Virus record (IMG/VR): IMGVR_UViG_3300009499_000053
Source: a virus
Reading direction: 5' to 3' (one strand)
Length of the DNA stretch: 64,000 nt
This document shows positions 17,044 through 63,789 of this stretch, one piece after another (position 1 is the first letter of the stretch; each line of letters opens with the position of its first letter). The notes beneath the pieces are model-generated. The model was not told the origin of the DNA, searched no databases, and worked only from the letters and a program-made list of their open reading frames with translations. The position numbers and the translations under genes were made by a program.

Positions 17044-17044
17044 A

Positions 17045-40107: not shown

Positions 40108-40431
40108 ATGGAGGTTAAGACTTTGGAAATGGAGAGTACGCAGTTTATTGTAACTCAGAAGAACTCCAAACAACTATGGAATAAACTCTTTGGTATAGAC
40201 TACACTGTAGAGTCTATGGACGATCTCCGTAGGAGTGCAGGTACTAAGTACACGGTTAGACACAAAGGCGATGACACCTGGGTATGTGACTGCAAGTCAT
40301 TCATATTCGATACAGGTACACAGAGTGTCACAATGAAGGATACTCGACAAAAGCATGAGAAGACATGCAAACACATCCGTTCTGTAATGAAGAAAGAGAA
40401 ACTACCATTCATGGCAACTGGATTCAGGTGA
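40108..40431 (+). CDS. SWIM Zn-finger protein with N-terminal LWNKLFG tag
   Basis: YTV....WVCDCKSF...CKHI. Confidence 0.7.
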   Translation: MEVKTLEMESTQFIVTQKNSKQLWNKLFGIDYTVESMDDLRRSAGTKYTVRHKGDDTWVCDCKSFIFDTGTQSVTMKDTRQKHEKTCKHIRSVMKKEKLPFMATGFR

Positions 40432-40506
40432 TATACATGATAGAGAAACAACTAACAAAGTTGAAGGAGACTTACAGCTTTGTTATATTCCTATTTGGAA
40501 TAGTAA

Positions 40507-40746
40507 GTGAGGACAATGTTAAAGGGACTAAACGGCTTAAAGCTAGACTTTCGTGAGAACCACTTCTGGCTAAAGGTCTGTCGTTCTCCAGATGACTCCT
40601 TCAAGTACGAAAATAGGAACCAGTATGAGTTCACTAGGAAAGAAATGATGAAGAGCTCATCCTTTAATCAGACCTTTACAGCACACTTTAATCATGATAA
40701 GATGATAATCTACATTTGGAGACTAGATAAGAGGTTACCAACATGA
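40507..40746 (+). CDS. Hypothetical protein
   Basis: 79 aa ORF coupled to the next ORF. Confidence 0.45.
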   Translation: MRTMLKGLNGLKLDFRENHFWLKVCRSPDDSFKYENRNQYEFTRKEMMKSSSFNQTFTAHFNHDKMIIYIWRLDKRLPT

Positions 40747-41021
40747 AAAGAAACGGTAGAGTAGCCCTAGTAGTAGATACCTCTGGATCAATGGGATTCG
40801 TGGATTACTTCTCACTAGGGATGAAACTCCAGTCAATTCAGGCGATTCACCTTGATAACTTCTGTAATACGAAAGAACTAGAGGCACTAGCAGAGAAGTA
40901 TGAGGAAGTTGTATTCGTAACAGATGGAGTTATTGAACCATCTTGGACAATCATACTAAATACTTACAGTAATATAAAAGTGGTCCGTGTTGGAAACTAT
41001 TTCTTCAAGGCCACATCATAG
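40743..41021 (+). CDS. Miniature VWA-like protein
   Basis: VALVVDTSGSM MIDAS and VVFVTDG in only 92 aa. Confidence 0.6.
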   Translation: MKRNGRVALVVDTSGSMGFVDYFSLGMKLQSIQAIHLDNFCNTKELEALAEKYEEVVFVTDGVIEPSWTIILNTYSNIKVVRVGNYFFKATS

Positions 41022-41081: not shown

Positions 41082-42227
41082 ATGAAAACCAAAAACAACG
41101 TAATTGAGAAAATGAGTCAGGTTGCTATCAAGGTAACACACGCTCAGCTTGAGGATACAATAGTCAAATACTACAAAGCCAAACGTGCCATGTTTTGTTG
41201 GGGCACTATGGGGATAGGTAAATCCCACAAGGTACGCGATGCTGCAAGAAGACTAGCTAAGATACTCGGCAAGAAAGTAGATGAGGAAAACCTAATCCAT
41301 GGCTCACTGGAACATATCAATGACCCTGAGTACTTCATCGTTATTGATATCCGTCTCTCACAATGTGACCCTTCTGACCTGAGGGGAATACCAGTATGGG
41401 AGAAAGAGAAGTCCGCAACGCAATGGCTTCCACCCTCGACATTCCCTAGAAAGGGATTCGGAATCATCTTCTTCGACGAGCTAAACTTAGCACCAAACCT
41501 AGTTCAGGCTTCTGCTTACCAGTTCATTCTGGATAGGGGTCTAGGAACGTACATGGTACCAGAGGGTTACGCAGTTCTAGCTGCAGGTAACAGACTTGAG
41601 GACAGAGCTAATGTCTTTGAGATGGCTGCACCACTGAGTAACAGAATGGGACACGTACAGTTAGACCCACCTTCGGTAGAAGATTGGACATCTTGGGCAG
41701 CTAAACATGACATAGACGCACGAGTAGTAGGGTATCTGAACTTCATGCAAGGCTCACTATTCCAGTTCGACTCTCGTATGAAAGAGAAAGCCTTTGGCAC
41801 TCCTCGTACATGGGAGTTCGTCTCTGACCTAATCAAGGATATACCAACAGCTGACTATGCCAACCTAAAGCTATACGTAGGTAGCTTAGTAGGAGAGGGA
41901 GAGGCTAACCAGTTCGTAGGCTTCCTGAAACTTAGGGATCATCTGAGACCTATCAAAGAATACTTCGAGAAAGCTAAGACTGTAGTCCTACCAGAAAAGG
42001 TAGACCTTCAATGGGCTCTCGTCACCTCGGTGGTCGAGTACTTCAAAGTCCACAATACACAGGCGGTACTAAAACAGTACATTGCACTACTGAAAAGGTT
42101 CTCAGAGGAATATGCTGTCTTCACACTGAAAATGACATATGCCTTCGATCCAAGCATTCAGTCCAAGCTACAGAAAATACCAGATGCAACTCCACTCGCT
42201 CAGAAACTCTGGAAATTTATCATGTAG
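41082..42227 (+). CDS. MoxR-like AAA+ ATPase
   Basis: GTMGIGKS, DLRGIP, IIFFDELN, AAGNR, PLSNR and TPRTWE. Confidence 0.88.
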   Translation: MKTKNNVIEKMSQVAIKVTHAQLEDTIVKYYKAKRAMFCWGTMGIGKSHKVRDAARRLAKILGKKVDEENLIHGSLEHINDPEYFIVIDIRLSQCDPSDLRGIPVWEKEKSATQWLPPSTFPRKGFGIIFFDELNLAPNLVQASAYQFILDRGLGTYMVPEGYAVLAAGNRLEDRANVFEMAAPLSNRMGHVQLDPPSVEDWTSWAAKHDIDARVVGYLNFMQGSLFQFDSRMKEKAFGTPRTWEFVSDLIKDIPTADYANLKLYVGSLVGEGEANQFVGFLKLRDHLRPIKEYFEKAKTVVLPEKVDLQWALVTSVVEYFKVHNTQAVLKQYIALLKRFSEEYAVFTLKMTYAFDPSIQSKLQKIPDATPLAQKLWKFIM

Positions 42228-42297
42228 AGGAACCTTCCTCTCATGAGTGAACATTTAAGAGGTGATTAAGTTGACAATGAGAAGACGAGCAATAAAC

Positions 42298-43518
42298 ATG
42301 ACACCAAGGGAAAAGATAATCCAAGCTAGAATATCTCTACTTAGACTAATGCCCTTCTGGGGTACAATGGCAATGCATCTTAAACCGATTGGGCTGAATA
42401 AAGAGGAAGCTCAAAAGGCTATGGGAATGAAGGTTCCTACTATGGGAGTAGACGTCTATGGTAACATGCCCTACTGTGATGAGTGGGTAGCAGGTCTCAA
42501 TCAAGAAGACCTTATGATGGTAATAGCTCATGAAACTATGCACTTAGCCCTAATGCACTTGATACGAAAGGGTTCAAGACAGATTAGACTATGGAACGTA
42601 GCTACTGATGAGGCAATTAATAACCTACTGAAACATGAGATGCGTATCTGGAAAGGAGCACTATGCTCTGCTCAGTTCGATAACAAGGCAGCAGAGGAAA
42701 TCTATGATGAGCTTCTGAAGGATATAACTATTAACAATGTCTATGGAGGTAATTGTCCGAATTCATTTGATGCGCACTTCTACGATGAAACAAAAGACCC
42801 TAATGAGAAGGGAAGTCCACTTCAGTCTCCTGGACAAGAGAAGCTAGATCCATCACGTTTGATCAAGGATGCTGCTTCCTTTGCTAAGAGTCAAGGAAAG
42901 ATGCCTGCTGGTATGGCTAGGCTATTCAAGGAATTACTTGAACCTAAGATGAATTGGAAGGAACTTCTACAGAAGTATATCATGTCTGTCTTACCACAAG
43001 ACTGGACTTACACTCGACCATCCAAGAGAGCACAGGCAGCTGGGTTCTACATGCCTAGCATAGTCAAAGAAACTGTAGAAATCATAGTAGGAGTAGACTC
43101 TTCGGGGTCAATCTCTGACCATGAGTATCAACAGTTCTTATCAGAAATCTTTGGTATGACTAGAGCGGTAAGTAACCTTAAGGCTACCATATTAATCTGT
43201 GACGCAGCAATATCTCAAGTTGTGGAGATAGATAACTCATTCAATCCAGCTATGGATATTGAGGGAAGAGGTTACGGAGGTACTTCTTGTCTACCAGTAT
43301 TCGATTGGATACACAATGAGAGAAGGGAGAACGTAAGACTATTGGTATACCTGACAGACGGGTACATAGATGAACCAATTGCTATGACATACACAACTGG
43401 ATATCCTGTTCTATGGATAGTAACTCCAAGGGGTTCTGATACATTCCTGAACAAGAACATAGGTAATCAAACCATAATAAAAATGCTCGGAGCTGTGAAA
43501 GGGGAGGAGGACTACTAA
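42298..43518 (+). CDS. Metallopeptidase-like plus VWA protein (DUF2201 type)
   Basis: HETMHLALMH..R, WNVATDEAIN, VDSSGSI, GYGGTS, YLTDGY; usual partner of the upstream ATPase. Confidence 0.85.
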   Translation: MTPREKIIQARISLLRLMPFWGTMAMHLKPIGLNKEEAQKAMGMKVPTMGVDVYGNMPYCDEWVAGLNQEDLMMVIAHETMHLALMHLIRKGSRQIRLWNVATDEAINNLLKHEMRIWKGALCSAQFDNKAAEEIYDELLKDITINNVYGGNCPNSFDAHFYDETKDPNEKGSPLQSPGQEKLDPSRLIKDAASFAKSQGKMPAGMARLFKELLEPKMNWKELLQKYIMSVLPQDWTYTRPSKRAQAAGFYMPSIVKETVEIIVGVDSSGSISDHEYQQFLSEIFGMTRAVSNLKATILICDAAISQVVEIDNSFNPAMDIEGRGYGGTSCLPVFDWIHNERRENVRLLVYLTDGYIDEPIAMTYTTGYPVLWIVTPRGSDTFLNKNIGNQTIIKMLGAVKGEEDY

Positions 43519-43886
43519 TGACAGTAGTCTTCAAAGTCCCCGTAAAGCCTAAACCAAAGACAACGCGGAAGAGGAGAAAGAGGAAGACCAAGGAAAAACC
43601 ACCAAAACCTATGATAGGTGCAGTAATGGATCCAACACAGGACTTCTTCCAGAGAGAAAGAGTAATGAAACGTGTTACTCTTTGGAAGTGGAGAATGGCG
43701 AAGTTCATTCGAGATATGAATAAGGAACAATGTGGTAGCTGTCAAATGAATAGTAGATGTAACAGAGTACCACTTGACTCAAAGACTACAAGGAGAATCA
43801 TATCTGGGAAAAAGTGTGAAGACCATCGATCGGTATGGAAGAAGATTATTGGGAACGAGGAAGACAAACATGACTGGGGATTCTAA
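43518..43886 (+). CDS. Cys-rich protein, paralog of 45191..45451, C-terminal VWKKII tag
   Basis: WR...CxxC....C...C....W.KI. Confidence 0.55.
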   Translation: MTVVFKVPVKPKPKTTRKRRKRKTKEKPPKPMIGAVMDPTQDFFQRERVMKRVTLWKWRMAKFIRDMNKEQCGSCQMNSRCNRVPLDSKTTRRIISGKKCEDHRSVWKKIIGNEEDKHDWGF

Positions 43887-44252: not shown

Positions 44253-44993
44253 GTGGAAAAAGCAACTAAAGGCTTGAAAAAGAGAGCAGAGAACCTCTGT
44301 AAATGGCTAGAGGACATGGAAGATGATATTGATTGGATTCATGCAGCAGACCTATATACGTGGTTAATGTGGAACGAACATGAACTTCCAGAGGATGAAA
44401 TTCAAAGACTACAACTTGTAAAGGAAAGATGTGAAACTTGTGGAAATAGGTTCTGGGTGACGAGAGGTATGAGATCAAATGTTAATGCTTGCCCGTTTTG
44501 CAACCGACAAACTTAGGAGAAAGTAGAATGAAATTCCAGATAGACATCACCATTAGGAAGATAGTCAAAGAAGGTGGACTAAAGATAATCCACTGTGATA
44601 AACCTAGAGCACTTGGTGAGATCATCAGGCATAACTACAACATTCCTTCTGTTGCCATTCGTGTTTGGGGACATGGGGTAACTCTATTTGATACTGACTT
44701 CCAACAAATCAAACATCTGTTCAAGGGGTTCAAGATTGAGAACCCAAAGTTAAAGTCTAAAAGACCAAGGAGATAAAGTAATGCCTACAGATTTAGACAG
44801 TCTAGATATAGATAAGATACCAGTGGAGTCACTAGGTGTAGCCTTACCTTGGCTTTCTAACTACTACAACTGTCCTAAGTGTAAGGGTTCTGTTGAACAA
44901 GGACTCTTCGGTAAGAAAGATAGTAAGGGAGTAGCTTGGTCAATAAGTGAGTGTGAGGACTGTGGCTACATCTACAAAGTCAAAGCTTTCTAA
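44253..44993 (+). other. Three small ORFs (44253-44516 Zn ribbon, 44489-44776, 44781-44993 Zn ribbon)
   Basis: CxxC pairs, RBS, tight packing. Confidence 0.55.
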
Positions 44994-46360
44994 GAATCAG
45001 GCTAAGGGTCTCTGGAATTCCCTATTCTGTCAGTACTATGGAGTCATAAGACCACATGAATTTAGTATAGAGAAATGTGACACATGTGAACAAGTGAAAC
45101 CCTGTAGACGGAAATACCTACGATTGCTCAAGAAGGCAGCTGAGAGATATGGAGCTCTAGGCAATATACCAATGGAAGTGTTAGAAGGACATGTCAAGCT
45201 CATCGGGAAGCTTATCACCAAAACAAATACGGATTCTACTCACTAGAGAGACAGAGTATATCCAGATAGCAGTAAGAAGACTAGCATGGAGACAAGCATA
45301 CTTCAGAAGTCATCGACCAGTTTACTGTTCTATCTGTACTCGTCTAGATTACTGTAGGAGACTAGATGTTAACGGAATAACACAGAATATAGTCCTTCAA
45401 GGAGGGACATGCCCTGATGTATGGACAATCTGGAATAAGATTTTCAACTAGGGAAGCACTTAATACGCCCTTCATCTGTCTTAATGAGAAACTTAGACCT
45501 CAATCAGCATGGAAGGTTCGTATCCTCTTAGATGGATTCTGTGGACTTCTGTCTTACAAACATAAGAAGCCAACAAAGTGTATGTACTGTGAAGTAGATA
45601 ATCCATACAAGTGTATGTTCCGTGACTCAGCACAGAAAATACTCTTTGAGAAGTTGTTTACCAATGGATATAAGAATAGAAGTGTTTAGTAAGGTCTTCA
45701 GACCAGCATGTTATGGTGATAGCGTTCATTGTCCTGTTCTATTCACAGATGAAATGTATAACTGTAAGCACTTTGATGAGTGTGAACAGAAGACAATAGA
45801 GAACTTCAACAAGAGTATCAAGAAGGATGTTAATCAGATTATGAGAGATTTAGGAATGGAAAGAAATGAAACTAGTTAGACTAACGTCAAGTGGAGTTGG
45901 AGCAAGGATTAATGGCTTTGATGTAGGGATTAAATTCTACCCATACTCATGGACTCTAACCCATTGTATTGAAGTGAGTAAGAGAAACTTTATACCCATT
46001 CAAGTCTATGCGAATCTTGGAGCCACCAATGAAATTATAGAAAGGCTGAATGCTGGTGGAAAGGAAACTCAGAAGATGTGGTTAGTTCTCCGTTTCATAA
46101 ATAACCTAAGCTATAGGGTGAAGAACTATAGATTGATGGATTATCTTCTCAGGGACGACTTTAATAAACTCCTGAAGAGTATCTTCTACTCCCTATGTAT
46201 CAGAAAGTATAAAAAGGTACGTCGTGTGGAAATCATACGTATAGTGAAGAGCTTCATTCGTCTAGGTAAAGTTAAGTCCAGTAATAAATGGGCTCAGAAG
46301 ATAATAAACATAGAGAAGTCCATCTTCTGGAAGAAGGTGTTTGGAACTGCTAATGAATGA
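44947..46360 (+). other. Five small tag-bearing ORFs (44947-45246, 45191-45451, 45417-45689, 45664-45879, 45866-46360)
   Basis: LWNSLF (N), IWNKIF (C), LFEKLF (C), VFSKVF (N), FWKKVF (C). Confidence 0.6.
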
Positions 46361-46727
46361 TAAGGAAGTCTGGTGTCAAGTTAAAAGTTCTACTAACAAA
46401 CGAGAAAACTTCAGAGAGTGTCATAAGTGCTGCATATTCTGTGGGGATATCAAGACCTGCGAAGTAAACACATGTGAGAAAAAGGATGAAGATGAACTCT
46501 GTTGCTGGCAGGCAAGTCCGTCCGAATGGATGATGGGTCGATTGGATAAGAGAGCAGAGGAATTTACTTGGAAACGTAGACAGAGGGAACACTTCATGAG
46601 GAATGGTCACACACCATACGATGGTTCTTGGGAAGGGGAACGCCTTGCTGAATGGCAGAGGAACTATCCTGAAGATTATGAAGAGATGTTTGTGGAGTTC
46701 CATAGCTATGAAGAGAGTAGAAAGTAA
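46353..46727 (+). CDS. Cys-rich protein (CCxxC family)
   Basis: CHKCCIFCGDIKTC. Confidence 0.55.
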   Translation: MNDKEVWCQVKSSTNKRENFRECHKCCIFCGDIKTCEVNTCEKKDEDELCCWQASPSEWMMGRLDKRAEEFTWKRRQREHFMRNGHTPYDGSWEGERLAEWQRNYPEDYEEMFVEFHSYEESRK

Positions 46728-48054
46728 GAACGAACAGTTCTGGAGAAAACTATTCTACACACCACCTACAACATGGGCAGGATTAAAGGAACATTGTTCA
46801 AGAAACTGTGTGATGGAACGTCCTGATATTAAAGAAGACCTCTGCCAGAGATGTAGTGCTATGGAGGGCTGGTTAGGAAGAGACCATTCACTCTTTAGGG
46901 TGATTGAAGGGATTTCTGAAATTAAAGAGAAGTTGAAGGAATATGCAACAAGAAAAAGCAAATAGACTTTGGAGGAAACTCTTCGGGTGGAGAGTAGGGG
47001 ACAGAGTCCAAGTGCACGGTAAGACAAAGATTATGTATGGAATGATAGAGAAGTTTATTACCGTTGCTGAGATTAATGGAAACGATAGAAGGGTGGACAT
47101 TCCATCTGCCATAGTCTGCTATGATGGGAAGATACGGAGGACACAAGTTATTTCAATTGATGTGTTGGAGATAGAGGGTGAAAATACTCCTCCCAAGGTA
47201 GACTTTGAGAAGGTCTTTTCACCATATGCATTCATATCACTCGAAGATAATGTTATCATTAGGGCAAGTAAAGCAAATCGTTACCTTAGGAGGAAAGCTC
47301 TTGAAAAGAGTTGAGCCCCTGAAGGAATTCTGGAGAAGACTCTTCATTGGACTGGATGTTGAGCAGAGGGAACTAGTTAAGCTAGCACCAATACTCCTTG
47401 AGGCTTCTAAGGAAGACGCAGATCTAGTAGGAGCTTTGGTATGGAGTCACTTCACCAACAATACCGAATGGAAAGGAACATTCAGACATACAGGTGCGGT
47501 GTTAGCTGATATCTTCAACAAACGTTTTGGTGGGAAGACATTCACTTACATGGACTTCTACTGCGCCAACTTAAGATTCATCACTCACACCAAAAAGAAA
47601 ATGGTAAGCTCTTATAAGGATAAACTAAAGGAGATGCAGAGGAAGTATAATACCAAAGTCTGCGTCAACTGCACATGAGTCGGAGGTGTATGTTTGAAGA
47701 GCACTGAGGAAAGGATTGAGGAAATCAAGAAAATAGCTAAGAAATTAGGTATCAAGAAGATAGACATGGTCGACCCAGAGACGCAAGAAGTAGAGGTGGA
47801 GATTGATGTCGAGGAAGACTAACAAGGTCTGGAGTGAACTCTTCAGTCCGCCTTGTCCCAATTGTGGGTCTACTAAGACTAAAGAGGAACTTTTGGACAT
47901 TCCCGCAATAGGTAGTGCGAGTGAGATACTAGAACGATTGAAAAGACAAATGGAAGGAAAACATAATTCTGTAATCAGAACTTGGAAATGCTTTGACTGT
48001 GAAACAGTTTATGATGAGAAAGGGAGATACATAACCCATGAAGGTAGAGTATAG
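46708..48054 (+). other. Tag-bearing ORFs 46708-46965, 46943-47314 (KOW/SH3-like), 47301-47678, 47803-48054 (Zn ribbon)
   Basis: FWRKLF, LWRKLFGWRVGDRVQV, FWRRLF, VWSELF near each N-terminus. Confidence 0.65.
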
Positions 48055-48370: not shown

Positions 48371-48760
48371 ATGCCTGTTATATACAAACGTAAGTTCCAA
48401 GTTCCTGGAGATACCATCAAGAATTGCTGGAACTTCAGGAAGAAGTGTGACAGAAAGTATGGTTATGTCCCAAATAAGAAACCGTGTATGGTTGAACAAC
48501 CCCCTCCACGTAGGACTTACTTACCAAGAATGCGACGGGAGGAGTCTAGGTGTCCATTCCCCATTAACCAACCCAGTAAGTATATTGTGTCGGAGATGGA
48601 TGATGGCACATGGAGATGCTCCTGTCCCGTATGGAAGTTCCGTAGACAACAGTGTCACCATATAGGTAAGGCACAGAGAAATCCGGAGGAGTATGAGATT
48701 GCAAAGGAACACACGCAGAGGACAACAGAAACCCTCAGGAAAATCTTCGAAGGAGCTTAG
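48371..48760 (+). CDS. SWIM Zn-finger protein
   Basis: YIVSEMDDGTWRCSCPVWKFRRQQCHHI. Confidence 0.75.
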   Translation: MPVIYKRKFQVPGDTIKNCWNFRKKCDRKYGYVPNKKPCMVEQPPPRRTYLPRMRREESRCPFPINQPSKYIVSEMDDGTWRCSCPVWKFRRQQCHHIGKAQRNPEEYEIAKEHTQRTTETLRKIFEGA

Positions 48761-50132
48761 ACTCTTCTGGGATAAGCTCTTTGGATTCAAGATAGGGGAT
48801 GTAGTGCGTGTCAAGTATGGCAAGGTTAGTTGGGAGATATGGAATCTCTTCATGTATAATAAGAGACTCTACCTCAAAGTAAGACGTTTCAGGAGAGATA
48901 GAAATGGTCGTTTGCAAGATACTGTCCACTCATACTTCTACGCAAGTGAAGTTATCAAAGTCCAAGCAAAAGAAGACGTGGACACTCCTTTTCCCTCCAA
49001 CGTGTTTCGGTGATAGGTTTAAAGTAGCTCGGTGTATTATCAAACGTATCAAGGAAGAAACACCAAAAGGTAAGATACCAGAATGTCCTATACATGATGA
49101 GTGTATTTCAGAGAGCATACGTAGAGAGGTAGTAGAGATTGACAGAGAGAGTAAAACTCACAAAGTATAAAGCGAAGAAGTTATGGAAGAAACTCTTTCG
49201 TCCCAAGTGTTTCGGTGAGAGAGATACCCTCCTTTCATGTATGAAGATATACTACATGCACTCTACAGTAGAGGAAAGAGCACTTCCATGTAACTATTTT
49301 GATGACTGTATTGATGAAGCCCTAAAAGAGCAGAGGCAGAAAAGGAATGAAGAGAAATCTTAGGAAACTTTGGAGTATACTGCTACCACCATACTGCTTT
49401 GGAAACCCATACCACATGCAATGCTCAGCAAGATACTCCCCAGAGTTCTGTTCTGTATGTTGGGAATGCACAAAGGAGTGCAGAAGGAAGGAGAAACTTT
49501 AATTGAAGAAGTTAGCAAAGAAAGCCCTGTTTAGGGAACTCTTCAAACCCTGTGTAGTAAAGGAAACCCTTACCAAACGTAGAATTGGACTTTGTGCTGG
49601 GGTTTACTCACAAAAGGATAGATGTAAACAAGGTTGTAAGTTCTGCCCCAATTTCATTCCTAACGCAGAAGGTTGGAGTAAGAGTGAATACCCAAAGTGT
49701 TAAACTTACCCAGCAAGAAAGTAGTCAGCTATTCAGAAGACTCTTCAAACCCTGCGGGGTAAAGGACTACATAACCCAATACTTAGAGGGACAACCACCT
49801 ATCTGTTCAGGTTTTGAAACACCGAGAGGAAGAAACAGAGAAGGTTGTAGGTTCTGCAGCCTATTCGTTCCAAACATAGAGAACTGGGATAAGGAGGATT
49901 ATCCAGAGTGTTAGATGAGAAGGTAACCCTAAACAAACATGAAGTAGATAGAGTCTTCAGACATGTCTTCTCCTGCCCAAGAGTTACTAGGGTAATTAAA
50001 AGATACGCATCATGTTGTATCATGTATCCCCTCTGTAAAAAGGGCTGTTGTGATAAATGTGATAACCAGAAGTGTAGAAGACGATGTATCAGAAACATAG
50101 TAGACTTTAAGAATGGTGAGTCAAGAATATGA
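48693..50132 (+). other. Tag-bearing ORFs 48693-49013 (KOW-like), 48946-49170, 49139-49363, 49347-49502, 49503-49703, 49684-49914, 49908-50132 (Cys-rich)
   Basis: FWDKLF, TWTLLF, LWKKLF, LWSILL, LFRELF, LFRRLF, VFRHVF. Confidence 0.65.
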
Positions 50133-53265: not shown

Positions 53266-54792
53266 ATGGCTGGAAATATAATCGTAAAACAGATAGAGAA
53301 GAGGAATTGGAATCAACTAAAGGAAGGCGTCCTAATATATGAACTGAAGATACCTGCTGTTTCAACTGCTAAGAAATATAAGGCAGAGGTTGAAGAGTGG
53401 GCTATCTTACCCAAGGAAAGACAGAGAAGTTACTATGGTTCTGATAAGGATAATGTGATGATTCTGAGGGTATCAGCTGCTTGGTCAAATGCTAAGGGAA
53501 CAGTAAAGGTAATTCTAGCTGGTAAGGACTACACTGCTGTCTTCTCACGGGAAAAGAACGTTGATGGATATATTGGAATCAAGACACCGAGTAGCTATGA
53601 GAAGAACTCATGTGATGTCTTTGACCACATAGACGTGGGGACATGGCTAGTATGCCCTAAGAAGTATGATGGGTCAGCTTATGAGATGGAAGTAGCGTTC
53701 ATCTCTAATGAGTCAAGTATAGACAATGTCAAGGAAATCTTAGAGACTGTCTGGTATATGCACAGAAGACATTCACTGAATAGGTCATTCCAATGGGAAC
53801 AGGAGTACCAGATAGAGTCCCTTGGAACTATTACCCTGAAGGAAGTATTACTTCAGAAGATAGTCTTTAACAGGACACTCAGACATTTCAAGTGGGTAAA
53901 ACGTAAGGAACAATGGGATCAATGGAACTCTATTAAGGCAAACATTAGCTTCGTAGATAATGGAACAACCTTTAAGACTAAGGTGAAAGCACTTGATGGA
54001 AACACTTGGTCATTTGAGTCAGCATCAAAGAAAGTACTAGACAGACTACCTGAAGAACCACTGTCCTTTGATACTGGGATATACAGGAAAGAGTGGTGGG
54101 TACCCTTTGTCTACCGTAAACGAGGTAACCGCTTCCTACAACAACCAAATGCTGAGAAGACTAACCAGTTAATGCAATACTTCCTACAGGCAATGCACCG
54201 ATTAAAGGCAAGGGAAGTGACCTTTGGATTCAACAAAAAGACTGTCATTATGACACAGAAGACAACTGGAAACAAGGCTCGACTATTCTACTTAGATGGA
54301 AAGATAGTCAAAGCAGACAACATAAGGGAGAAGGTGAAGGACTACTTCATAAACAGCAAACCAATAGTTGAAGAGAAGGTAGAGGTGGAACTATCGAATG
54401 GAAGGTCTGTAGCAAGAGCTACTCTCTCAGTTGAAGCACAAAAGCTAATAGAAGAAGGACTCAATGGAAAGATGCGGGACTTAGAGGGAGAATTCCCCTT
54501 CCACTTGAACATTATTTACAAGAAGGAGGAACGTAAGTGGTATATCGAGTGCGCTGGAAAGCTCTTCTATGTGAAGGGAGGGTATGGTGCACTTAAGAAG
54601 ATCCAATCAGCAGCACGAGGGACAGCAGTCCTTGACTGGGACAAGTATAAAGACAATGCCTTTGGGAAGTCCGGAACACGAGTTATTAGGAACAGACTAG
54701 CTGAGTTGGTAGGACCTAAGGATGCACTGTGGATAGTGGTGAACGTAAAGAAGATGGGAGCACTGATGAAGGCAATAGGACCTTCCGTATAG
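53266..54792 (+). CDS. Large hypothetical protein (508 aa)
   Basis: Long ORF with AGGAGG RBS; no motif recognised. Confidence 0.75.
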   Translation: MAGNIIVKQIEKRNWNQLKEGVLIYELKIPAVSTAKKYKAEVEEWAILPKERQRSYYGSDKDNVMILRVSAAWSNAKGTVKVILAGKDYTAVFSREKNVDGYIGIKTPSSYEKNSCDVFDHIDVGTWLVCPKKYDGSAYEMEVAFISNESSIDNVKEILETVWYMHRRHSLNRSFQWEQEYQIESLGTITLKEVLLQKIVFNRTLRHFKWVKRKEQWDQWNSIKANISFVDNGTTFKTKVKALDGNTWSFESASKKVLDRLPEEPLSFDTGIYRKEWWVPFVYRKRGNRFLQQPNAEKTNQLMQYFLQAMHRLKAREVTFGFNKKTVIMTQKTTGNKARLFYLDGKIVKADNIREKVKDYFINSKPIVEEKVEVELSNGRSVARATLSVEAQKLIEEGLNGKMRDLEGEFPFHLNIIYKKEERKWYIECAGKLFYVKGGYGALKKIQSAARGTAVLDWDKYKDNAFGKSGTRVIRNRLAELVGPKDALWIVVNVKKMGALMKAIGPSV

Positions 54793-54907: not shown

Positions 54908-55559
54908 ATGAAATTAACACCAAGGGCCCAGGAGGACCTGTGGTCAAAGGTATTCACTAAGAACTGTAGGAACTGTCATCACCCAATACGAACTAACCGA
55001 GACCGAGGAATACCGGTTAATCCGGACAAGGCCTTTCACTGGATAGAGGATTATGGTTCAAAGATGTGTCCTTGTTATGAGTGCTCCTGCAACAGACCAG
55101 AACCTTAAGACGGACAGCCTGATGCTAACTCTAACGATAACCTCGAACCGTGGGACTAACTCATAGGTTAATATTTGATCCAGGGCCCAGGAGGAAACTT
55201 AGATGAAGATAACCAGGAAAGAGAAGAAAGTACTATTCAATAGACTATTCAAGGGTCTAGAGTTAAAGCAGGGCGATGTGATTATATTCACTCAACGTGG
55301 AAAGAAACTCTGGCGTGTAGAGTGGAAAACAGATAAGGGTGCCTCTCTCATCTCACTAGGCACCAAGTGGTCCACACGATACATCTACCCAAAGGACCAT
55401 AGGAGAGTCCGAAAGGTCGAAGGGGCTGAACTGGTCCAGTGGATACTACGTAATAGACCAGGATATCTACCTAAGATTATAAAGGACCAAAAGAAGAGAA
55501 TTAAACTACTACGTAAGCTAATCCCCAAACCCGAAGGGTTAGAGGATATAGAGATATGA
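54908..55559 (+). other. Tag-bearing ORFs 54908-55108 (Zn-binding) and 55203-55559
   Basis: MKLTPRAQEDLWSKVF and MKITRKEKKVLFNRLF. Confidence 0.6.
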
Positions 55560-55853: not shown

Positions 55854-56468
55854 ATGTCCACGGTTCTGAATCAGAAAAGACCATTATTAACGTATGGTAA
55901 TCTCAAACTTTCTAAGCGTCAAGCTATCTGGACACTTCCTTCAGGCATTACCTGTATTGGAGCAGGGGAATGTGCAAAGTGGTGTTATTCCAGAAAAGCA
56001 GAACGATGTTATAAACGGGCAAGAGCTTCTAGGGAATGGAAATTAGAGGTAAGTAAGAAAGCTAATTTCGTTCTAGTTATGGTAAATGCCATTCTCAACT
56101 CTAAGAGAAAGATAGTCAGGGTTCATCAAGACGGAGATTTCTACTCTCAGGATTATTTGGAGAAGTGGAAGAATATAGCAAGGTTACTTCCAAACGTGAC
56201 CTTATACGCATTCACTAAGTCTTTTGAGTTAGACCTATGGGTAGGACTTCCTAAGAACTTTATCATCATTCAATCGTTTGGTTCAAGGTATGATGGGAAG
56301 ATAGACACCAAAAGGAATACCGCAAGAGTAGTAGATACTCAGGCAGAAATTGGGAAGAAAGAATACACTTGTCCTTACCACGAAGAAACTTTCACTAAGT
56401 GTGGTGAGTATTGCACTTACTGCATGACTAGAGGGAAGATAAAACACGTTGCCTTTCTCAAACACTAA
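55854..56468 (+). CDS. Phage gp88-like protein (Cys-cluster, radical-SAM-like fold suspected)
   Basis: GNLKL..WTLPSGITCIGAGECAKWCYS, VRVHQDGDFYS, YAFTKS; TTTATAA promoter about 35 nt upstream. Confidence 0.7.
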   Translation: MSTVLNQKRPLLTYGNLKLSKRQAIWTLPSGITCIGAGECAKWCYSRKAERCYKRARASREWKLEVSKKANFVLVMVNAILNSKRKIVRVHQDGDFYSQDYLEKWKNIARLLPNVTLYAFTKSFELDLWVGLPKNFIIIQSFGSRYDGKIDTKRNTARVVDTQAEIGKKEYTCPYHEETFTKCGEYCTYCMTRGKIKHVAFLKH

Positions 56469-56700
56469 ATTCTGGAAAGCTCTCTTTGGAACAAGGAGAG
56501 TTTGTGCAAGTGTTAAATGTAAAAAGGTTACCTTCTACTGTTCTGGAAAGTGTCCACCTGATAGATGGGCATATTCAAAGAAACGTAGTAAAGTCGATGG
56601 AAAGTCATGTTTCTGTCCTAAATGTGTGCGAACTGCTAGAAGATGGGGGTTTGAGAGAAAGGAAGAGAGATTCAAATACTGTTTTGGAGAACAACTCTGA
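56449..56700 (+). CDS. Tag-bearing Cys-rich protein
   Basis: FWKALFG followed by a Cys cluster. Confidence 0.55.
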   Translation: MPFSNTKFWKALFGTRRVCASVKCKKVTFYCSGKCPPDRWAYSKKRSKVDGKSCFCPKCVRTARRWGFERKEERFKYCFGEQL

Positions 56701-57287
56701 TGGAAAAGACCAAACAAATGAAGTTCAAGAACTATCCTAAAGTCTACCGTATTCCTATTCCAGAGTTCCCTCTGACTAGGGGAAAACACTATCTCACAGA
56801 AGAGGAAACAGAGAAACTATGTAGTGGAAGGGTAGTCATAGAGGAAAAGGTAGATGGTAAGATAGGTTCAGAGTATCATTCAGGTTACCCAGAAAGCTAT
56901 CTCTTCTACGAGTTTGCTAAATGGAAACATACAATACCCTACATAAAACTTCCACAGTGGAAGATATACTTTGATATGTGGCTTCTCTACGAAGAGGAAT
57001 TCGCAGACATGGGAATTAAGAAGTTTACATTCGATAAGATGGGTGTTCCTATGGTTCAGACATTATATGATGGACAGATGTCTGGATTCAAGGAGCTACA
57101 CCATCATCTCAAAAGAATCTTAGGTTTCCCTAGTGCTTATGGAGACAATCCAATAGAGGGAATTGTAGTCAAGAACTACCCTAGACAACTACTAGGTAAG
57201 ATAGTTAATCCAATGTTTGAAGAGGATATGGATAGCGCAGGTCATTGGATGAAGAGAAAGAAGGAGAGAAATAGACTTGCAATTTAG
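56700..57287 (+). CDS. RNA ligase (compact ATP-dependent nucleotidyltransferase domain, Rnl2/Rnl5-like)
   Basis: YPK.., EEKVDG (motif I), FYE, YFDMW, EGIVVK (motif IV), GKIV; no OB domain. Confidence 0.75.
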   Translation: MEKTKQMKFKNYPKVYRIPIPEFPLTRGKHYLTEEETEKLCSGRVVIEEKVDGKIGSEYHSGYPESYLFYEFAKWKHTIPYIKLPQWKIYFDMWLLYEEEFADMGIKKFTFDKMGVPMVQTLYDGQMSGFKELHHHLKRILGFPSAYGDNPIEGIVVKNYPRQLLGKIVNPMFEEDMDSAGHWMKRKKERNRLAI

Positions 57288-58391
57288 TGTTGAAGAAAGG
57301 AAGAAAGCTCTTAGACTCTGGATAGAACTGTTCGGAACGCTTAAGTGTAAATCTACCTGTCGATACAGTAGGAATGGTATCTGCACAGATGACCCCAACA
57401 AACATACATGGGGAATGGACTGTATTGATAGAGAATGCTATACAGTTAGGCAGATTCTATTCTCAGGAGATAAACGGAATGGTTAAACCTTGGGCATCTA
57501 TTGGAACTGAGGAAGAAAACTTCTGGAAGAGATTCTACCAAGTCTACATTCGAGGAGACCTGATAGAGTATCCTGAGAATCCAATTATCTATGGAGACAA
57601 TAACACTGGTAGAGGAATCTACTACACTCACTACAAGATAGGAACAGAAGTTCATCTTATAGTGGCTTACAATGCCTCAATAGGTGGAAAGATTCAGATA
57701 GGAGACTGTTTTCTAACTGAGAACGAATGGAACAGAGTGAAGATACTTAAGAAGGCAGAGAATTTCAAACATCTTATAGAAGCAATACAATACTACAGAG
57801 ATGAAAGGTTGCGTTTGAATTGGTAACCTACTCAACTAAGCCTAATATTCCAAGAGATGAACCTAGACTCTGTCGTGTGTCTTTCACCGAAGGTAATTGT
57901 GATAAGGGAATAGCAAAAGACTGTAATGGACTTTGTTGTAAGTCTTGTAATAAATCTTATTGTAACAGGAAATGTCCTCAGTCATATCTCCTTAACTGTT
58001 TTAGAGAAGTTACACTTAGAGAAGTAGCATTTGAGAGGTTATTCAGGTGAGTTACATAACAGTGGATTGTGATACCACAAGACGATTTAATACATCTGTC
58101 TTATGGCAGAGACTCTTTAAGCGCTTTGCAAAGGGAGACATTATTCGGTTTGGTACACTGTCTTTTTTTACGAGGACAGGTATCTTCTACAATACCTACA
58201 AAATGACAAATGAACAGATCCATGTTCAAGTGATTGTGGGATGGGGAGATAGTCCCAACACGATTAAAGTAGCAGAGCTTCTTCTCTGGGAACATGAATG
58301 GAAGGATGCAAAGTTAATTAGGGGTTGTGAAGAGTTTAACAGTTTATATGATGTAATGGATTGGTGGAAGAATAAACGTGAAAGAACTTAA
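57277..58391 (+). other. Tag-bearing ORFs 57277-57486, 57479-57826, 57820-58050, 58047-58391
   Basis: LWIELF, FWKRFY, AFERLF (C), LWQRLF; 57479 and 58047 are paralogs. Confidence 0.6.
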
Positions 58392-58965: not shown

Positions 58966-59581
58966 AAATAGGATTCAGAGCAAGGTTTAAAGATTCAGAG
59001 AAAAGAACACCTATCTATAATGAGGAGAGACTTAGTGACTCATTTCTGGTGTTTCTTCCTAGTAGAATAGAGATCATTCCTATAAAGGATGTTGAACAAC
59101 ATTCATATAACTCTGGGAGACTCTATGAAATAAAGATGGAAGTAAGTAAACTAATTACAATGGAAGAGCTTAAGGAGAAACTCCTCAAGATGGATATAAG
59201 TATTAAGAGTATCTCTAACATCAAAAGAGAGTTTACAAAGGAAGAACTAGAAGAAGTAGAGAAGTTAGTCTGTTTCAAGGAGATCTTTGAACCTACAGAG
59301 GTTGTAGTTAAGTGATTCCAATGCTCTTCGTAATAATCATAGGAATAGGAGTAGCTGTTCTTATAGGGAAGTCTGTTGTTACGAAGATACTAGCTAAGAC
59401 AAATGCGATAGAGAGGAGAGAAAGTCTAGAACGAATTAGAAAGCTAGAAGGAAGACTTAAGCAGGCAGTGGAACTATTACCACACGAAGACGATGTGATA
59501 GATGGATCTGAGGAAACAAGTGAGGCAGAAGGACTTCCATGTAGTGCAGTAATGGATGCTGAGGATAATGAAGAAGAGTGA
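58962..59581 (+). other. ORFs 58962-59315 (C-terminal CFKEIF) and 59312-59581 (N-terminal TM helix plus coiled coil)
   Basis: Coupled ORFs. Confidence 0.55.
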
Positions 59582-62500
59582 AACTAGGGAACTTTGGAGA
59601 GAGCTATTCGGATGGCACAAGGGAGATAAGTGTAGAATGCCTAAGTTTCCATTACTAGAATGTTATGGAAAGATTGTTACCTTCGCCACAATGGCGAATA
59701 ATGACTTATATGCAGTGGTTGAGTATAAGAATAGAAACTGGATTGGTACACGTAGAGGAGTCTTTCCTGTGAAAGATCTTTTAGAGGATGATAGAGATTG
59801 AAACTAAGTAAAGCAAATAAGCTCTGGCGGAAGCTATTTGGAATGATAGGAAGAGAGGTAGTACTAAAGAAACGTTTTCAAAAACAGCATCCATATATGT
59901 ATGTCTGGTATTCTCCTTCATCATTATGTATCAAGATTCCAGTGGAGAAGTTCGTAGGAGTTATAGTTTCAAAGAGGATATGGAGTCAAGGACAAGCTTA
60001 TGACGTTAGATGGATTGCTGATAGAAGGTCACCTAGTCAAGCTAGGTCTTTCATTTGGCGGAGACACAAATTCGACATACTAGGGGAGAAAGAAACTGGG
60101 TAAGAAAGGAAGGATCTTCATTTCAAGGAACAAGTTCTTTGAAAGACTATTCAAAGGTCGTTGTTGCTTTACCTGTCTTCACTTCCAGAGAGCTACTAAA
60201 CACTGTTGGCAACCTTCTAAGTCTGAAGCATTCCGAGGAGTTAGCCCTCCTTTTGATTTCACCGAATACTTTGATATTCCATTGGAAGATTATCTAGTAG
60301 GTCAAGCCTGTGAATATTGGAGCTAAGAAGAGAAATGCTAAAGAATAAGCAAAAGAAGTTCTGGACTAAGTTCTTTAATCCACTTGAAGTTGGAAGTCAT
60401 ATTAGAATTAGATCTAAGTTTGCTCCTACTCCTGCTTGGATTTACAATGGTTACCTAGGTGAGATTGTAGCCATTAATTCAGATAAGTACGGTGTATTCT
60501 ATGAAATCCATATTCAAAGAAAAGATAATCCTCGTATGTTAGATGACGATGATGTCGTAACATACAGAAAGAAATACTTGGAGTTGATTGTATGACTGAT
60601 ACAAGACCTATCTGTTTCCAAGATGAGTGTTCTATGGTAGCTGTGAAGAATGGAATAGTGGTTCGATACTCAAAGGATATGAGACAGAATGGAGATGTCT
60701 ATGAGTGTCCCATATGCAAGAATGCTATTGTTATAGGCTTCGGGGATAAATACCACTCAACAGATAAGACAGATATCCGAAGGAGAGTATGTTAGAGTGA
60801 AGAACACGGGTAGTGATAGAAGGATACCAAAGGCAAGTCAAGTGTGGAGAGAACTTCTCCCTCCTTGTAGAGGATCGTGGGTACAGTTCGAGGCTCAGTT
60901 TCAAGGGGTACATAGAAAAATGATAGGCTTCATTAAAGCAGTAGAGATTAATGATAATGGTATTCCTTGGTATACTATCCGTGTAACAAGTATGCATCCA
61001 ATGGGTGATTGGGTTAAACCACACAACCTTGGAATCAAAGGCAATTCGAGGTTAAAGGTGATTGAAGAACCTTAGTAGGAAGCAGTCTAATTCCTTCTGG
61101 AACTTCTTCTTTGGAGTGGATCTGGGAGATATTGTAGAGATTGATGTGCAGAGTCATTCACATGATGACTGGCATAGGGTTCATGTGGAGATTATAGTAA
61201 CATATCCAGACCCTTGTAATGTAATTAATAGACGAGGACAATTACGAGGAAGAGTCATTAAAGACTTCGACAATGTTGGTCTCCGTAATAGCAGATACAC
61301 CTTCCATGCATCTAGGATAAAGAGGTTAGTGAAGAAATGGAAACGATAGTCTGTGAGAACCTTCCTTCTAAGAAGAAAGCAGATGTTGTATTCAGAGAAA
61401 TCTTTACCGACTTTCCTTATGCAGTAGGAGATAAGGTAACCTTTAATTACTCGTTTATGAGAGAAGAAGGAAAGATTACCCACATAGATCAGAGAGGTAA
61501 GTGGTTCTACGTCTGTATGGATGTTAACTTCGGTAAGTATAAGAGACTCTGTTTGAAAGGAAAAAGAAAAGACTACACAAACGATATGAGGATAGTTGCC
61601 TAGAATGAAATTACCCTTCAAAGAGACGGATGTTATTTGGTGGGAACTTATGCCTATCAAATTAGGAAATACAGTCAAGGTTCTCAAGACAGGGAGGATA
61701 GGTTGGGTAACTGGGATGACTATTCCCTGCTCTCACTCAGGAAAGATGAATATAGTGGTGGAGTACTACCTAAAGACCACTTGGGAAATACTCATAGGAA
61801 ATGCTTTAGGGGGTAAAGAAAGTGACTTTGTTTCCTGTAGGAGATGGGAAATTGAGAAGGTTAATGAGAAGCAATAGACTGACTAAGGAAGAGACAAAGG
61901 AACTCTGGGAGAATCTTTTTCCTCTTCTAACACACACAAGGGTTAAATTCCTAAGTGGATCTTGGAAAGGAAGAAAAGGGTGGATACTTAGTCAACGTTG
62001 GGATTATACCCTTAAAACAAATTTCTATATGGTTAGATTTGAGGATGGGATAGAGGTTGGTTACTACACAAGGAAAGAAATTGAACCCACTAAGTAGTCA
62101 GAAGGAGAAGAGACTCTGGGAAAAACTCTTTCCTATTCCTGTGGAATCGACGGTTAGGATCATGTCTAAGGGAGTCTATGAAGGACGACTTGGTCGGATA
62201 GTAAATCATAGGTGGGATGAGATCCTCAAAATGAATACTTACACAGTCATAATAAAAACAGCAGGCGGAGAAGAACTTGTCGGATACTGGACAGAAGAGA
62301 AACTCAAAGTCATTAAGTAGAAAGGATAGGAAGAGGTTTTGGGAGAGACTCTTCGAATTTAAGGTGGGAGATTTAGTCAGGGTTATCGGTGTTTGGGATG
62401 GAACTCTTAAAGATATTCGTCCTGATTTAATAGGGAGGCTAGGCACTATAATAAAAAAGGTAACTAGTTACCACGAAATGAATAGGACTACTCTTTTTCC

Positions 62501-63789
62501 TACTAACCATCTTAAAGATCGGATTCCTATCCAAACTTGGATAGTTAACTTTGGGAGATCTGAATGTTGGCATATGACATCTGAAGACTTGGAGTTAGAA
62601 CTAGATGGATAAAGATGAGAAGAGAAAGTTCTGGAGAAAGCTTCTAGGGTACAAGATTGGTGAAAAGGTCACCATAACTTATGAGATTCCCTCGACCTAT
62701 GAGGTTCCCAGAAGGAAAACAGACGGTAATATTGTGGACGTAAAGATGATTGGTGTAGCAGAGGTCTTTCTATCAGGAACAATAGTAGGATTTAAAAGAG
62801 ACACTCTAGTGCTTCAGACTGCTGACAAGGTAAGAATCAACCTAGATGAGAAGAGAATACTAGATGCCCGTGTTGCTTCGAAAGAGGATCAAAAAGATCT
62901 TAGATTACGTTGGGGAGAGAGTCTTGAAAGTTACCTCAAAAGAACGTACAAAAGCAAATAAGGTTTGGACTCGTGTCTTCGGTCTGAGGGTAGGAGACAA
63001 GGTTAGAGTACACAGAGGATTTGACACTCCTTTTGGGTTGACAGGGAAAACACGAGAGGGAGTAATTAGAGCTTTCGTAACTGAGGGTCTAGGAAGTCAT
63101 TGGGGTCCTTACATAGTTAGTATTAGAGGAGAAACATTCAATGGAGATATGTTCTGTAGGGAAGAGGAATTAGAGAAGATTGAAGATTCTAAAGAAGATT
63201 AGAGAACACTTTGCTTGGAAGGTAAGTAAGGAGGAAAATAAGAACTTCTGGAATCAGTTCTTTGCTTCTGAGAACCATAAAGAGTACATAGAAGAAATGC
63301 ATCGGTTGGAAGAGTATTTCCAGCAATTACGACTAAAGTATGAACAAGATTTTACTGAGGCAAAGGAAACTCTCCTTGCTACAACTAAGACTGTGGATAA
63401 AGTCAAGTACAGGATTCTTAGGAAGAGAGCTAGAGACACGAAGGAGAGAATGTTTAAACTCCGACAGCTTATATTCTCTAGAAGGGTTGAGTACAAGGAG
63501 AAGGTTAGACTTGAGTAAACAAGATCCATTAACAATACCATTAATCAGAGACTTCTGGAGAGAAGTATTCGGTATAGAATATACTATTTCCATACACACA
63601 GCAGTTTCTCCAATAAGCACAAGGACTTCCTATGGTGGATGGAGAAGAAAACCAGGGATTTATGTTTGGAGGGTATTGGAGATAAGTCCGAGTGGAAGTA
63701 GAATTGTGGCAGAGGGAGAGATCGCTAGGAAGGCTTCAGCAGAAGCTATGGCAACAGCTAGGTTGAGGGATATATTAGATGGCATCTAA
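59568..63789 (+). other. Run of 15 tag-bearing ORFs, mostly KOW/SH3-like: 59568-59801, 59798-60103, 60096-60326, 60317-60595, 60797-61075, 61062-61349, 61337-61603, 61596-61877, 61864-62097, 62081-62320, 62277-62612, 62605-62961, 62924-63202, 63180-63518, 63511-63789 (plus untagged Zn ribbon 60592-60795)
   Basis: LWRELF, LWRKLF, FFERLF, FWTKFF, VWRELL, FWNFFF, VFREIF, IWWELM, LWENLF, LWEKLF, FWERLF, FWRKLL, VWTRVF, FWNQFF, FWREVF, each within about 25 aa of the start. Confidence 0.7.

Follow-up and report, generated by a model that had tools for sequence, protein, structure and literature searches.

A terminal helical peptide shared by many small predicted proteins of an uncultured archaeal virus: a candidate address or docking label

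In a 64,000-nucleotide stretch of viral DNA (hereafter the window), which forms the last 64 kb of the 133,079-bp IMG/VR record IMGVR_UViG_3300009499_000053 (G000), a large group of small predicted proteins shares one short peptide tag at or near a terminus. The virus is an uncultured tailed virus of archaea, and about fifty of its predicted proteins, mostly small, carry the tag. We tentatively read the tag as a modular helical address or protein-docking label, with a probability of roughly 0.45. This reading builds on the motif itself, its modelled helicity, its conservation at the level of the peptide, its occurrence at either terminus and on more than one fold, and its retention in related viruses. 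The observation is robust. The nearest known kinds are shared terminal address or docking peptides, and the literature that we found does not describe this one.

Between positions 40129 and 63789 of the window, 34 open reading frames (ORFs) of 51-125 residues on the + strand carry the motif h-[ST]-x-x-[EK]-x-x-x-[LFV]-[WF]-x-x-[LVF]-[FL]-[GP] near the N-terminus, and in six further proteins of the window, a MoxR-like ATPase among them, the core hexapeptide lies at most 11 residues from the stop codon. The initial annotation, made from the letters of the window, had described this array with 36 N-terminal and about seven C-terminal copies. The array itself was recovered, and the counts are corrected to 34 and six. 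The ORFs and peptides that it quoted, at 46943, 49139, 59798, 61864 and 62277 for the N-terminal copies and at 45191, 45417, 45866, 57820 and the end of MoxR for the C-terminal copies, were all found at these places. The core of its motif also stands, and the motif proves to be longer than was described, with a hydrophobic residue at position -8, Ser or Thr at position -7 and a helix N-cap pattern.

In the alignment anchored on the core (33 sites, counted before the copy at 48976 joined the set), position -8 is Leu in 16 and Met in four copies, position -7 is Ser or Thr in 14, and Lys, Arg and Glu predominate from -6 to -1, with Ala frequent at -3. The core itself is [LFV] followed by Trp (26) or Phe (7), two variable residues, Leu (24) and Phe (28), and Gly or Pro follows at +6/+7. 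Gly stands directly after the core in 12 of the 34 copies, about a third. This is the pattern of a capped, self-terminating helix with an N-cap, which would be expected to form autonomously. In line with the amphipathic helix proposed in the initial annotation, AlphaFold2 (AF2) models of two carriers place a helix over the tag, at residues 3-14 and 9-19, respectively.

The third codon positions of the core vary freely (A/C/G/T counts of 6/17/4/6, 8/19/2/4, and 3/17/1/12), with Leu encoded by CTA, CTC, CTT, CTG, or TTA and Phe by TTC or TTT, whereas the first and second codon positions of the four core residues are fixed. These results indicate that the conserved object is the peptide and not the DNA, as had been proposed from the synonymous variation. 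The residue at -8 is the initiator codon where the protein begins there, and elsewhere it is Leu, written as CTT, CTC, CTA, CTG, or TTA; the position is therefore part of the peptide rather than a signal for the start. The tag starts 6-22 codons past the nearest start codon, most commonly 8, and this near-fixed distance would suit a nucleic-acid signal, such as a promoter, a ribosome-binding context or a recombination linker at gene starts, that is incidentally translated. We assign this explanation almost no probability, however, because the codon variation effectively refutes a DNA-level element, the motif is specific to frame and strand, copies exist at C-termini, and distant relatives conserve the peptide and not the DNA.

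A chance origin of the tag is excluded. The strict core [LFVI]W..[LVIF]F was found 17 times in the 64 proteins of a roughly delimited right-arm set, whereas 1000 shuffles that preserved composition gave 0.6 on average and 4 at most, which bears out the expectation that the motif exceeds composition-matched controls; in the rest of the genome (179 proteins), three were observed and 1.7 expected. In six-frame counts, 31 strict matches were located in the three + frames of the right arm, compared to one on the coding (-) strand of the 30-kb left arm. An 18-residue profile of the tag reaches 9 bits or more solely on ORFs read from the + strand in the right arm or its continuation, and over the full 157-kb genome it gave 48 + strand matches of at least 6 bits versus a single 6.2-bit match on the - strand. 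No profile match was seen on the CCA enzyme, HD, phosphatase, RNA ligase, archease, or virion genes, from which the tag had been reported to be absent.

Gene calls stored with two public assemblies include 27 of the 34 tagged ORFs, 22 of them with an identical start. In the 20-kb interval 43.9-63.8 kb, roughly two in three genes are tagged when the public calls and the uncalled tagged ORFs are taken together. An 80-codon open frame at 60084-60326 has a good core (FFERLF, then KG) and no in-frame ATG, GTG, or TTG upstream, and is either a decayed copy or a gene with an unusual start.

For the bodies that follow the tag, no meaningful Pfam or PHROG match was obtained for any of the 34 N-terminally tagged ORFs, and an all-against-all phmmer comparison of the bodies alone gave three small clusters and 26 singletons. 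Seventeen of the 34, and two more just past the window, have a barrel-type body, in which the tag is followed by G-x-[KR]-x-G-D-x-V-x-V and further strand-like blocks, and the helix runs directly into strand 1. In the AF2 model of the 59568-59801 product, calculated with a paralogue alignment (predicted local distance difference test, pLDDT, 84), the tag forms helix 3-14, with a helix pLDDT of 80-87, and the remainder a small five-stranded barrel. The closest solved structures are Tudor, chromo, and Mib-repeat SH3 domains (Z 6.1-7.7, residues 14-69), and the best of these matches start at residues 12-15, past the tag. Since these Z scores are moderate, the matches indicate the fold class only (SH3/Tudor-like). 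For the ESM Atlas model of the 62924-63202 product, KOW and FeThRed_A neighbours are aligned from residues 13-20, also past the tag. A Foldseek search of the PDB with the barrel model returned nothing at E 0.001 or better; as for an Sm/Lsm fold, the Foldseek rows to Hfq and SmAP1 are weak (E ~0.1, root-mean-square deviation 6-7 Å) and there is no Pfam LSM match.

Thirteen of the 34 bodies are Cys-rich, several of them with x-P-x-C-[FY]-G after the tag. The AF2 model of one of these, 49139-49363 (pLDDT 74), consists of three helices, of which the tag is the first (residues 9-19), and this fold, known from that one modelled member, differs from the barrel. The other four bodies are a Cys/His protein, a 125-residue protein, a charged protein that looks coiled-coil-like by eye, and one that fits no class. 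The tag is thus predicted to sit on at least two folds, an SH3/Tudor-like barrel and a helical Cys-containing body, which argues against all bodies being of one fold. The description of the bodies as unrelated in the initial annotation is nonetheless too strong for half of them, the 17 (plus two past the window) that form one barrel family.

An exhaustive HMMER search with the barrel-type alignment returned 81 proteins at E 0.001 or better, of which ~50 are small (70-118 residues). Own copies aside, these small homologues, ~35 of them tag-bearing, come from other metagenome contigs, and they share an N-terminal K-x-x-[KR]-[LVF]-W-x-[KR]-[LIV]-F-[GP]-x-K-x-G-D-x-V-x-V, the barrel, and an acidic EELE-x-h-E tail. 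The Trp is invariant across 38 aligned barrel-type members from many sources. A word-index search with one tagged protein (46943-47314) gave the self match only, exact look-ups of the large terminase and of one ORF near the end of the window returned no match, and a related-locus search with alignment A6 found no locus in viral contigs, none in genome contigs, and three in metagenome contigs.

The related contigs are L033 (NCBI JABAOC010000279.1, 125 kb), L035 (Logan SRR29324583, 29 kb), L036 (JGI), L039 and L040 (JGI 3300033156 and 3300033149), and L041 (Logan ERR12264628, 27 kb). In L033, L035, L036, L039, and L041, arrays of tagged ORFs lie on the coding strand, and the tag is attached to barrel-type, Cys-type, and other bodies. 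L041 contains ~45 profile matches in 20 kb, including Cys-type bodies with IF-x-P-P-C-[FY]-G, and one of its ORFs (3173-3508) has two tandem tags, the first with a short Cys segment and the second with a barrel, which looks like a fusion of two adjoining tagged genes. A homologue (E <1e-5) in the related loci was found for 19 of the 34 window ORFs, indicating that these are conserved genes and not noise. The gene order is also conserved, in the form MoxR, DUF2201, array, 508-residue homologue, array, GP88, array. An orthologous pair of ~135-residue proteins, window 51693-52091 and L035 421-840, has a tag-like core (FWHYLL and VWKKIF, respectively) in the last third of the protein, not at a terminus.

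A different account of these carriers is that the tag is an inherited structural helix, so that a few families of small proteins each have a first helix that packs on the body and no common reader exists. The barrel family, in which the helix is contiguous with strand 1 and could therefore be part of the domain, agrees with this account, as do the ~35 external homologues that keep helix, barrel, and acidic EELE tail together, the AF2 model of the Cys type, where the tag is helix 1 of a three-helix body, and the helix pLDDT of 80-87. However, the same motif occurs on a beta-barrel, on helical Cys bodies, and on further bodies that include a charged protein, possibly a coiled coil, and it occurs C-terminally on the MoxR-like ATPase and on 122-, 164-, and 244-residue proteins, the last of these radical-SAM (S-adenosylmethionine)-like, with the first three copies kept in orthologues. 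Long repeat proteins that have the barrel only (Pfam SH3_15, 'Mind bomb SH3 repeat') match the barrel without the helix, so that the barrel exists without it, and the two tandem tags of the L041 ORF also argue against an integral helix. A structural helix is plausible for the barrel family alone, but the copies at C-termini and the variety of folds are difficult to square with it; as an explanation of the whole set, we consider it rather unlikely.

The C-terminal copies in the window, all on the + strand, begin with the MoxR-like AAA+ ATPase (41082-42227, 381 residues), which ends in ...AQKLWKFIM-stop. This protein has no Pfam match at E 0.01, and its assignment is based on the call in the initial annotation and on its pairing with DUF2201. 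The 122-residue protein at 43518-43886 has VWKKII 11 residues before the stop, kept in the L039 and L041 orthologues, and the 164-residue protein at 45866-46360 ends in FWKKVFGTANE-stop, kept in the L039 and L036 orthologues. The others are an 86-residue Cys-rich protein (45191-45451) ending in IWNKIFN-stop, a 90-residue protein (45417-45689) with LFEKLF nine residues before the stop, and a 76-residue Cys-rich protein (57820-58050) ending in AFERLFR-stop.

The array runs on for ~24 kb past the end of the window, with the N-terminal cores VWDEIF, LWKRLF, LWRELF, FWRRVF, LWSHLF, FWNRFF, and LWTKLF and with a 244-residue protein that has a weak radical-SAM match and the C-terminal core LWNKLF. 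In the first 9 kb of the IMG/VR record, the cores FWKKLF, LWKKLF, and VWERVF were found, plus a C-terminal FWTRVF.

The net charge of the tag averages +2, with a range of -2 to +6; 27 of the 34 tags are positive and seven are neutral or acidic. A short amphipathic helix that presents Trp and Phe on the same face between Lys/Arg flanks, mostly of positive charge, at either terminus and with a Gly/Pro hinge after it, could also lie flat in the membrane interface, in which case the 'hub' would be the host membrane, gathering the small proteins and MoxR. The tail of Escherichia coli MinD ends in ...FLKRLFGG, and the tag consensus is close to it. The helices of MinD, FtsA, MreB, and SepF resemble the tag in being short, terminal (N or C), and amphipathic, with basic flanks, a Leu/Phe face, and a Gly thereafter, whereas each belongs to one cytoskeletal or ATPase protein and the tag is a label on dozens of proteins, with a near-invariant Trp and some acidic members. 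Such acidic and neutral tags (for example TKEETKELWENLF, net -2) do not suit membrane targeting, the almost invariant Trp is unusual for purely physicochemical anchors, and the hydrophobic face is of four residues only. In addition, for the membrane-targeting sequence of MinD, a C-terminal amphipathic helix, a single short helix of this kind was reported to be too weak to bind by itself (PMC8155659). A membrane anchor is the main rival to a docking label, unlikely but deserving some weight.

A protein-docking label or address appears most likely because the Trp is near-invariant, the tag is found on an ATPase and on enzyme-like proteins, and acidic and neutral variants exist. In this proposal, a clade of tailed viruses, probably of Thermoproteota (TACK), puts the tag, a self-contained amphipathic helix of ~14 residues, on many products of the non-structural arm. 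The helix opens with a hydrophobic staple residue (-8) and Ser or Thr as its N-cap (-7); charged residues lead on to the face [LFV]-W-x-x-L-F, and Gly or Pro stops it. It sits chiefly at the N-termini of small SH3/Tudor-like barrels, of Cys-rich proteins, and of a few others, and at the C-termini of some larger proteins, the MoxR-like ATPase among them. Together, the four hydrophobic side chains (i, i+1, i+4, i+5) may make up a single face for contact with a common partner or site, so that effector-like small proteins and the ATPase would all be brought to one place. As reader, either a host machine or a viral protein specific to the clade is conceivable, for example the 508-residue family described below.

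Several known systems share features with such a label. The PIP (PCNA-interacting protein) box has the consensus Q-x-x-[LIM]-x-x-[FYW]-[FYWL] and is usually C-terminal; as with PIP-box clients and the F-box/PRANC adaptors of large viruses, many tagged proteins would share a short hydrophobic or aromatic motif for one hub, or a constant end joined to variable ends. In the tag, [LFV]-W-x-x-[LV]-F, there is no conserved Gln, the residue at -3 from the Trp is Lys, Asn, Arg, or Glu, and the position is mostly N-terminal. A canonical PIP box is ruled out by this spacing, in agreement with the initial annotation. An LC3-interacting region/Atg8-interacting motif (LIR/AIM) was also set aside: W-x-x-L is present, yet its context is helical and basic, and no Atg8 is known in archaea.

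The phage T4 internal proteins, of which there are three, carry a capsid-targeting peptide that is strictly N-terminal and is cleaved by the prohead protease. The T4 sequence is like the tag in that one short N-terminal peptide acts as an address on different small viral proteins; the tag has another sequence, ~50 carriers, an archaeal virus as its source, and some C-terminal copies, one on an ATPase. In families of ribosomally synthesized and post-translationally modified peptide (RiPP) precursors, one conserved leader precedes variable cores, and both RiPP leaders and the tag are conserved N-terminal peptides on variable, often Cys-rich small products encoded in arrays. In contrast to RiPPs, the tagged bodies are predicted to be folded domains of 50-110 residues, often barrels; the array has no linked maturase, and the weak radical-SAM-like protein is itself tagged.

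The tag could accordingly be conceived as a cleavable leader or targeting sequence, in the manner of the T4 capsid-targeting sequence or a RiPP leader, removed by the DUF2201-like protein, LonB, or a prohead protease and possibly marking capsid cargo. The N-terminal position, the Gly/Pro immediately after the core, the metallopeptidase-like gene at the head of the array, the LonB in the head module, and the many small, Cys-rich carriers are in its favour. Yet copies occur at C-termini, one on an ATPase, a set of ~fifty distinct cargoes to be packaged or processed would have no precedent, homologues of DUF2201 and MoxR are present in viruses without tags, and no conserved cleavage motif was seen; a leader is thus distinctly improbable.

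The archaeal stalk protein aP1 provides a further comparison. Its helix at the extreme C-terminus (L100, L103, L106, F107, G108; L-x-x-L-x-x-L-F-G) docks on aEF1A, aEF2, and other factors, with aEF1A touched by the free carboxylate (PMC4267659). Like the tag, the stalk helix, which serves archaea as a universal docking peptide, is short and ends in hydrophobic-x-x-L-F-G, and the virus and its relatives are rich in translation genes; in the tag, by contrast, 34 of the 40 window copies are N-terminal, Gly follows the core in the third of copies noted above, and Trp replaces Leu103. The resemblance to the aP1 stalk may serve as a speculative lead. None of these known kinds matches the tag in sequence, spacing, position, and scale, and our literature searches found no description of this motif or of this virus group.

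For the reader of the tag, the initial annotation had proposed one common hub, with the neighbouring MoxR-VWA/peptidase pair among the candidates. The partner of MoxR, a DUF2201 metallopeptidase-like and VWA-like protein (42262-43518, +), is untagged, heads the array, and is syntenic in relatives. Homologues of MoxR and DUF2201 (33-35% identity) were also found in two more distant viruses, G001 (128 kb, its capsid protein 30% identical) and L023 (159 kb), neither of which has a tag array: the whole of G001 gives a single tag match, of 11 bits, and in L023 the sequence up to 10 kb from the pair gives none. The presence of the pair without arrays, and the tag on MoxR itself, argue against the pair as a dedicated reader; MoxR looks like a carrier of the label and not its reader. 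The window MoxR and its 76%-identical L039 orthologue share the end AQKLWKFIM, whereas the distant MoxRs of G001 and L023 end otherwise; in this small comparison of two proteins with the tag, from the tag-bearing clade, and two without it, MoxR appears to have gained the tag in the same clade that has the array.

The 508-residue protein (53266-54792, +) lies within the array and belongs to no known family. It has 24 close homologues (31-52% identical) and one marginal homologue, all unannotated and several on contigs that encode tagged proteins; none was found in G001 or L023. A block near its C-terminus is nearly invariant (…EGLNG-x-MRDLEGEFPFHLN…). The family thus appears restricted to the tag-bearing clade, and its co-occurrence makes it a candidate reader to the extent of clade specificity and no further. 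The protein has no Pfam match and no PDB sequence match, and its Atlas model is poor (pLDDT 0.34), with no meaningful neighbours. Complex prediction for the 508-residue protein (25-row alignment) with the 62924-63202 product (38-row alignment) gave no answer for or against binding (score 0.00), the fold of the partner being uncertain in at least one run.

Several findings weigh against an address or docking label. No reader or hub for the tag was identified in this analysis, so that the common hub of the initial annotation was not found. Half of the carriers belong to one family, in which the helix leads straight into strand 1; the pLDDT of the AF2 helix is fairly high (80-87), and the helix may pack on the body. 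Identity over the 19 orthologue pairs is 47% in the tag region as a whole and 39% in the body, a slight difference. Finally, seven of the 34 tagged ORFs are not among the public gene calls.

A second terminal label, [FYW]NP[ST]xR, occurs on other small ORFs, in ~35 copies on the + strand, from ~14,000 to 25,500 of G000 and scattered to 66,000. In 16 copies it stands directly before the stop (FNPSER-stop, WNPTER-stop). A second MoxR-like ATPase (10092-11678) is encoded upstream of these small ORFs, and no protein has both the Trp-helix tag and this label. The existence of a second terminal tag fits a labelling strategy. The fullest form of the address reading, a doubtful one, is a peptide-address system of the clade, in which a dedicated reader (the 508-residue protein or a host machine, for example the translation apparatus) would recognise the Trp helix and gather the ~fifty effectors and MoxR, while the orthogonal [FYW]NP[ST]xR-stop label would address a second site, giving two-label sorting.

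The N-terminally tagged ORFs of the window, all on the + strand, are as follows, with the core of each. The 100-residue product of 40129-40431 (LWNKLF), with the Cys/His body, scores 19.7 bits with the profile and has a tagged orthologue in L039. The 125-residue product of 47301-47678 (FWRRLF) is neither barrel-type nor Cys-rich, the 112-residue product of 63180-63518 (FWNQFF) is the charged, coiled-coil-like one, and that of 63511-63789 (92 residues, FWREVF) has another kind of body.

The Cys-rich proteins start with 44962-45246 (94 residues, LWNSLF), 45664-45879 (71 residues, VFSKVF, then RPACYG), and 46708-46965 (85 residues, FWRKLF); the product of 47806-48054 (82 residues, VWSELF, then SPPCPNC) is zinc-ribbon-like. 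A dense run then follows, with 48946-49170 (74 residues, divergent TWTLLF, then PPTCFG; 9.4 bits), the modelled 49139-49363 (74 residues, LWKKLF, then RPKCFG), 49347-49502 (51 residues, LWSILL, then PPYCFG), the paralogues 49503-49703 (66 residues, LFRELF) and 49684-49914 (76 residues, LFRRLF), and 49908-50132 (74 residues, VFRHVF). Further Cys-rich proteins are encoded at 54908-55108 (66 residues, LWSKVF), 56449-56700 (83 residues, FWKALF), and 57277-57486 (69 residues, LWIELF).

The SH3-type proteins are predicted at 46943-47314 (123 residues, LWRKLF, then GWRVGDRV; 21.6 bits), 48699-49013 (104 residues, FWDKLF, then GFKIGDVV), 50604-50885 (93 residues, LFGALL, then GFREGDRV), 55203-55559 (118 residues, LFNRLF), and 58062-58391 (109 residues, LWQRLF). 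Next to the modelled 59568-59801 (77 residues, LWRELF, then GWHKGD; 22.1 bits) lies the SH3-like 59798-60103 (101 residues, LWRKLF), followed by 60335-60595 (86 residues, FWTKFF), 60797-61075 (92 residues, VWRELL), 61062-61349 (95 residues, FWNFFF), 61337-61603 (88 residues, VFREIF), 61605-61877 (90 residues, IWWELM), 61864-62097 (77 residues, LWENLF), 62081-62320 (79 residues, LWEKLF), 62277-62612 (111 residues, FWERLF, then EFKVGDLV), 62605-62961 (118 residues, FWRKLL), and 62924-63202 (92 residues, VWTRVF, then GLRVGDKV), the last being the protein with the ESM Atlas neighbours. The GP88-family protein at 55854-56468 (+), also within the array, is syntenic in relatives.

Public assemblies contain the same sequence on an ENA contig of 157,032 bp and on a JGI contig of 55.9 kb, differing at 0-2 positions over 20 kb. 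On the ENA contig, 23,812 bp separate the end of the window from the start of the IMG/VR record; the 133,079-bp record and this gap sum to 156,891 bp, exactly 141 bp, the assembly k-mer, less than the 157,032 bp of the k141 contig. The genome is therefore probably ~156.9 kb long and circular or circularly permuted, and the 'provirus' trim of the contig in IMG/VR thus probably took away viral DNA.

The left arm of the window, on the - strand, encodes an HK97-type capsid protein, the large terminase, the LonB-like protease, which sits in the head module, an ATP-dependent ligase, and glycosyltransferases. Elsewhere the genome encodes an archaeal CCA enzyme, two RNA ligases, archease, Ro60/TROVE, RadA, XPF/ERCC4, a family B polymerase, ribonucleotide reductase, two MoxR-like ATPases, Alba, ribosomal protein S26e, topoisomerase IB, an eRF1-like protein, and PTH2; no PCNA gene was found in the virus genome. 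At the switch between the two arms, ~1.2 kb (30445-31630) lack a convincing ORF. The nearest cellular homologues of Alba (~50% identical) come from metagenome-assembled genomes of Caldarchaeum, Thermoprotei, and Bathyarchaeia, which suggests, as a weak inference, that the host is probably an archaeon of the Thermoproteota (TACK).

The translation-related set of the virus comprises ribosomal S26e, the eRF1-like factor, and PTH2, and that of its relatives uL16/L10e, S17e, and an Elf1-like zinc ribbon (L027 14342-14635, L032 16893-18440, L056 14069-15037 and 15427-15735, L035 8260-8781 and 12550-12867 for the set as a whole); the virus and relatives also encode Alba and a eukaryote-type topoisomerase IB. 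Among public runs, two of DNA or unknown type contain the stretch and no RNA run with it is listed; one of the runs that contain it, probably its source, is labelled subsurface metagenome.

Most genes of archaeal viruses are small orphans without a handle for study, and here one peptide links about two thirds of the genes in 20 kb and about fifty genome-wide, and is conserved across a whole clade of uncultured viruses. If the tag does act as an address or as a docking label, one pull-down with it would reveal the partner or compartment for much of the early gene set, and effector genes of related metagenomic viruses could be found by searching for the tag.

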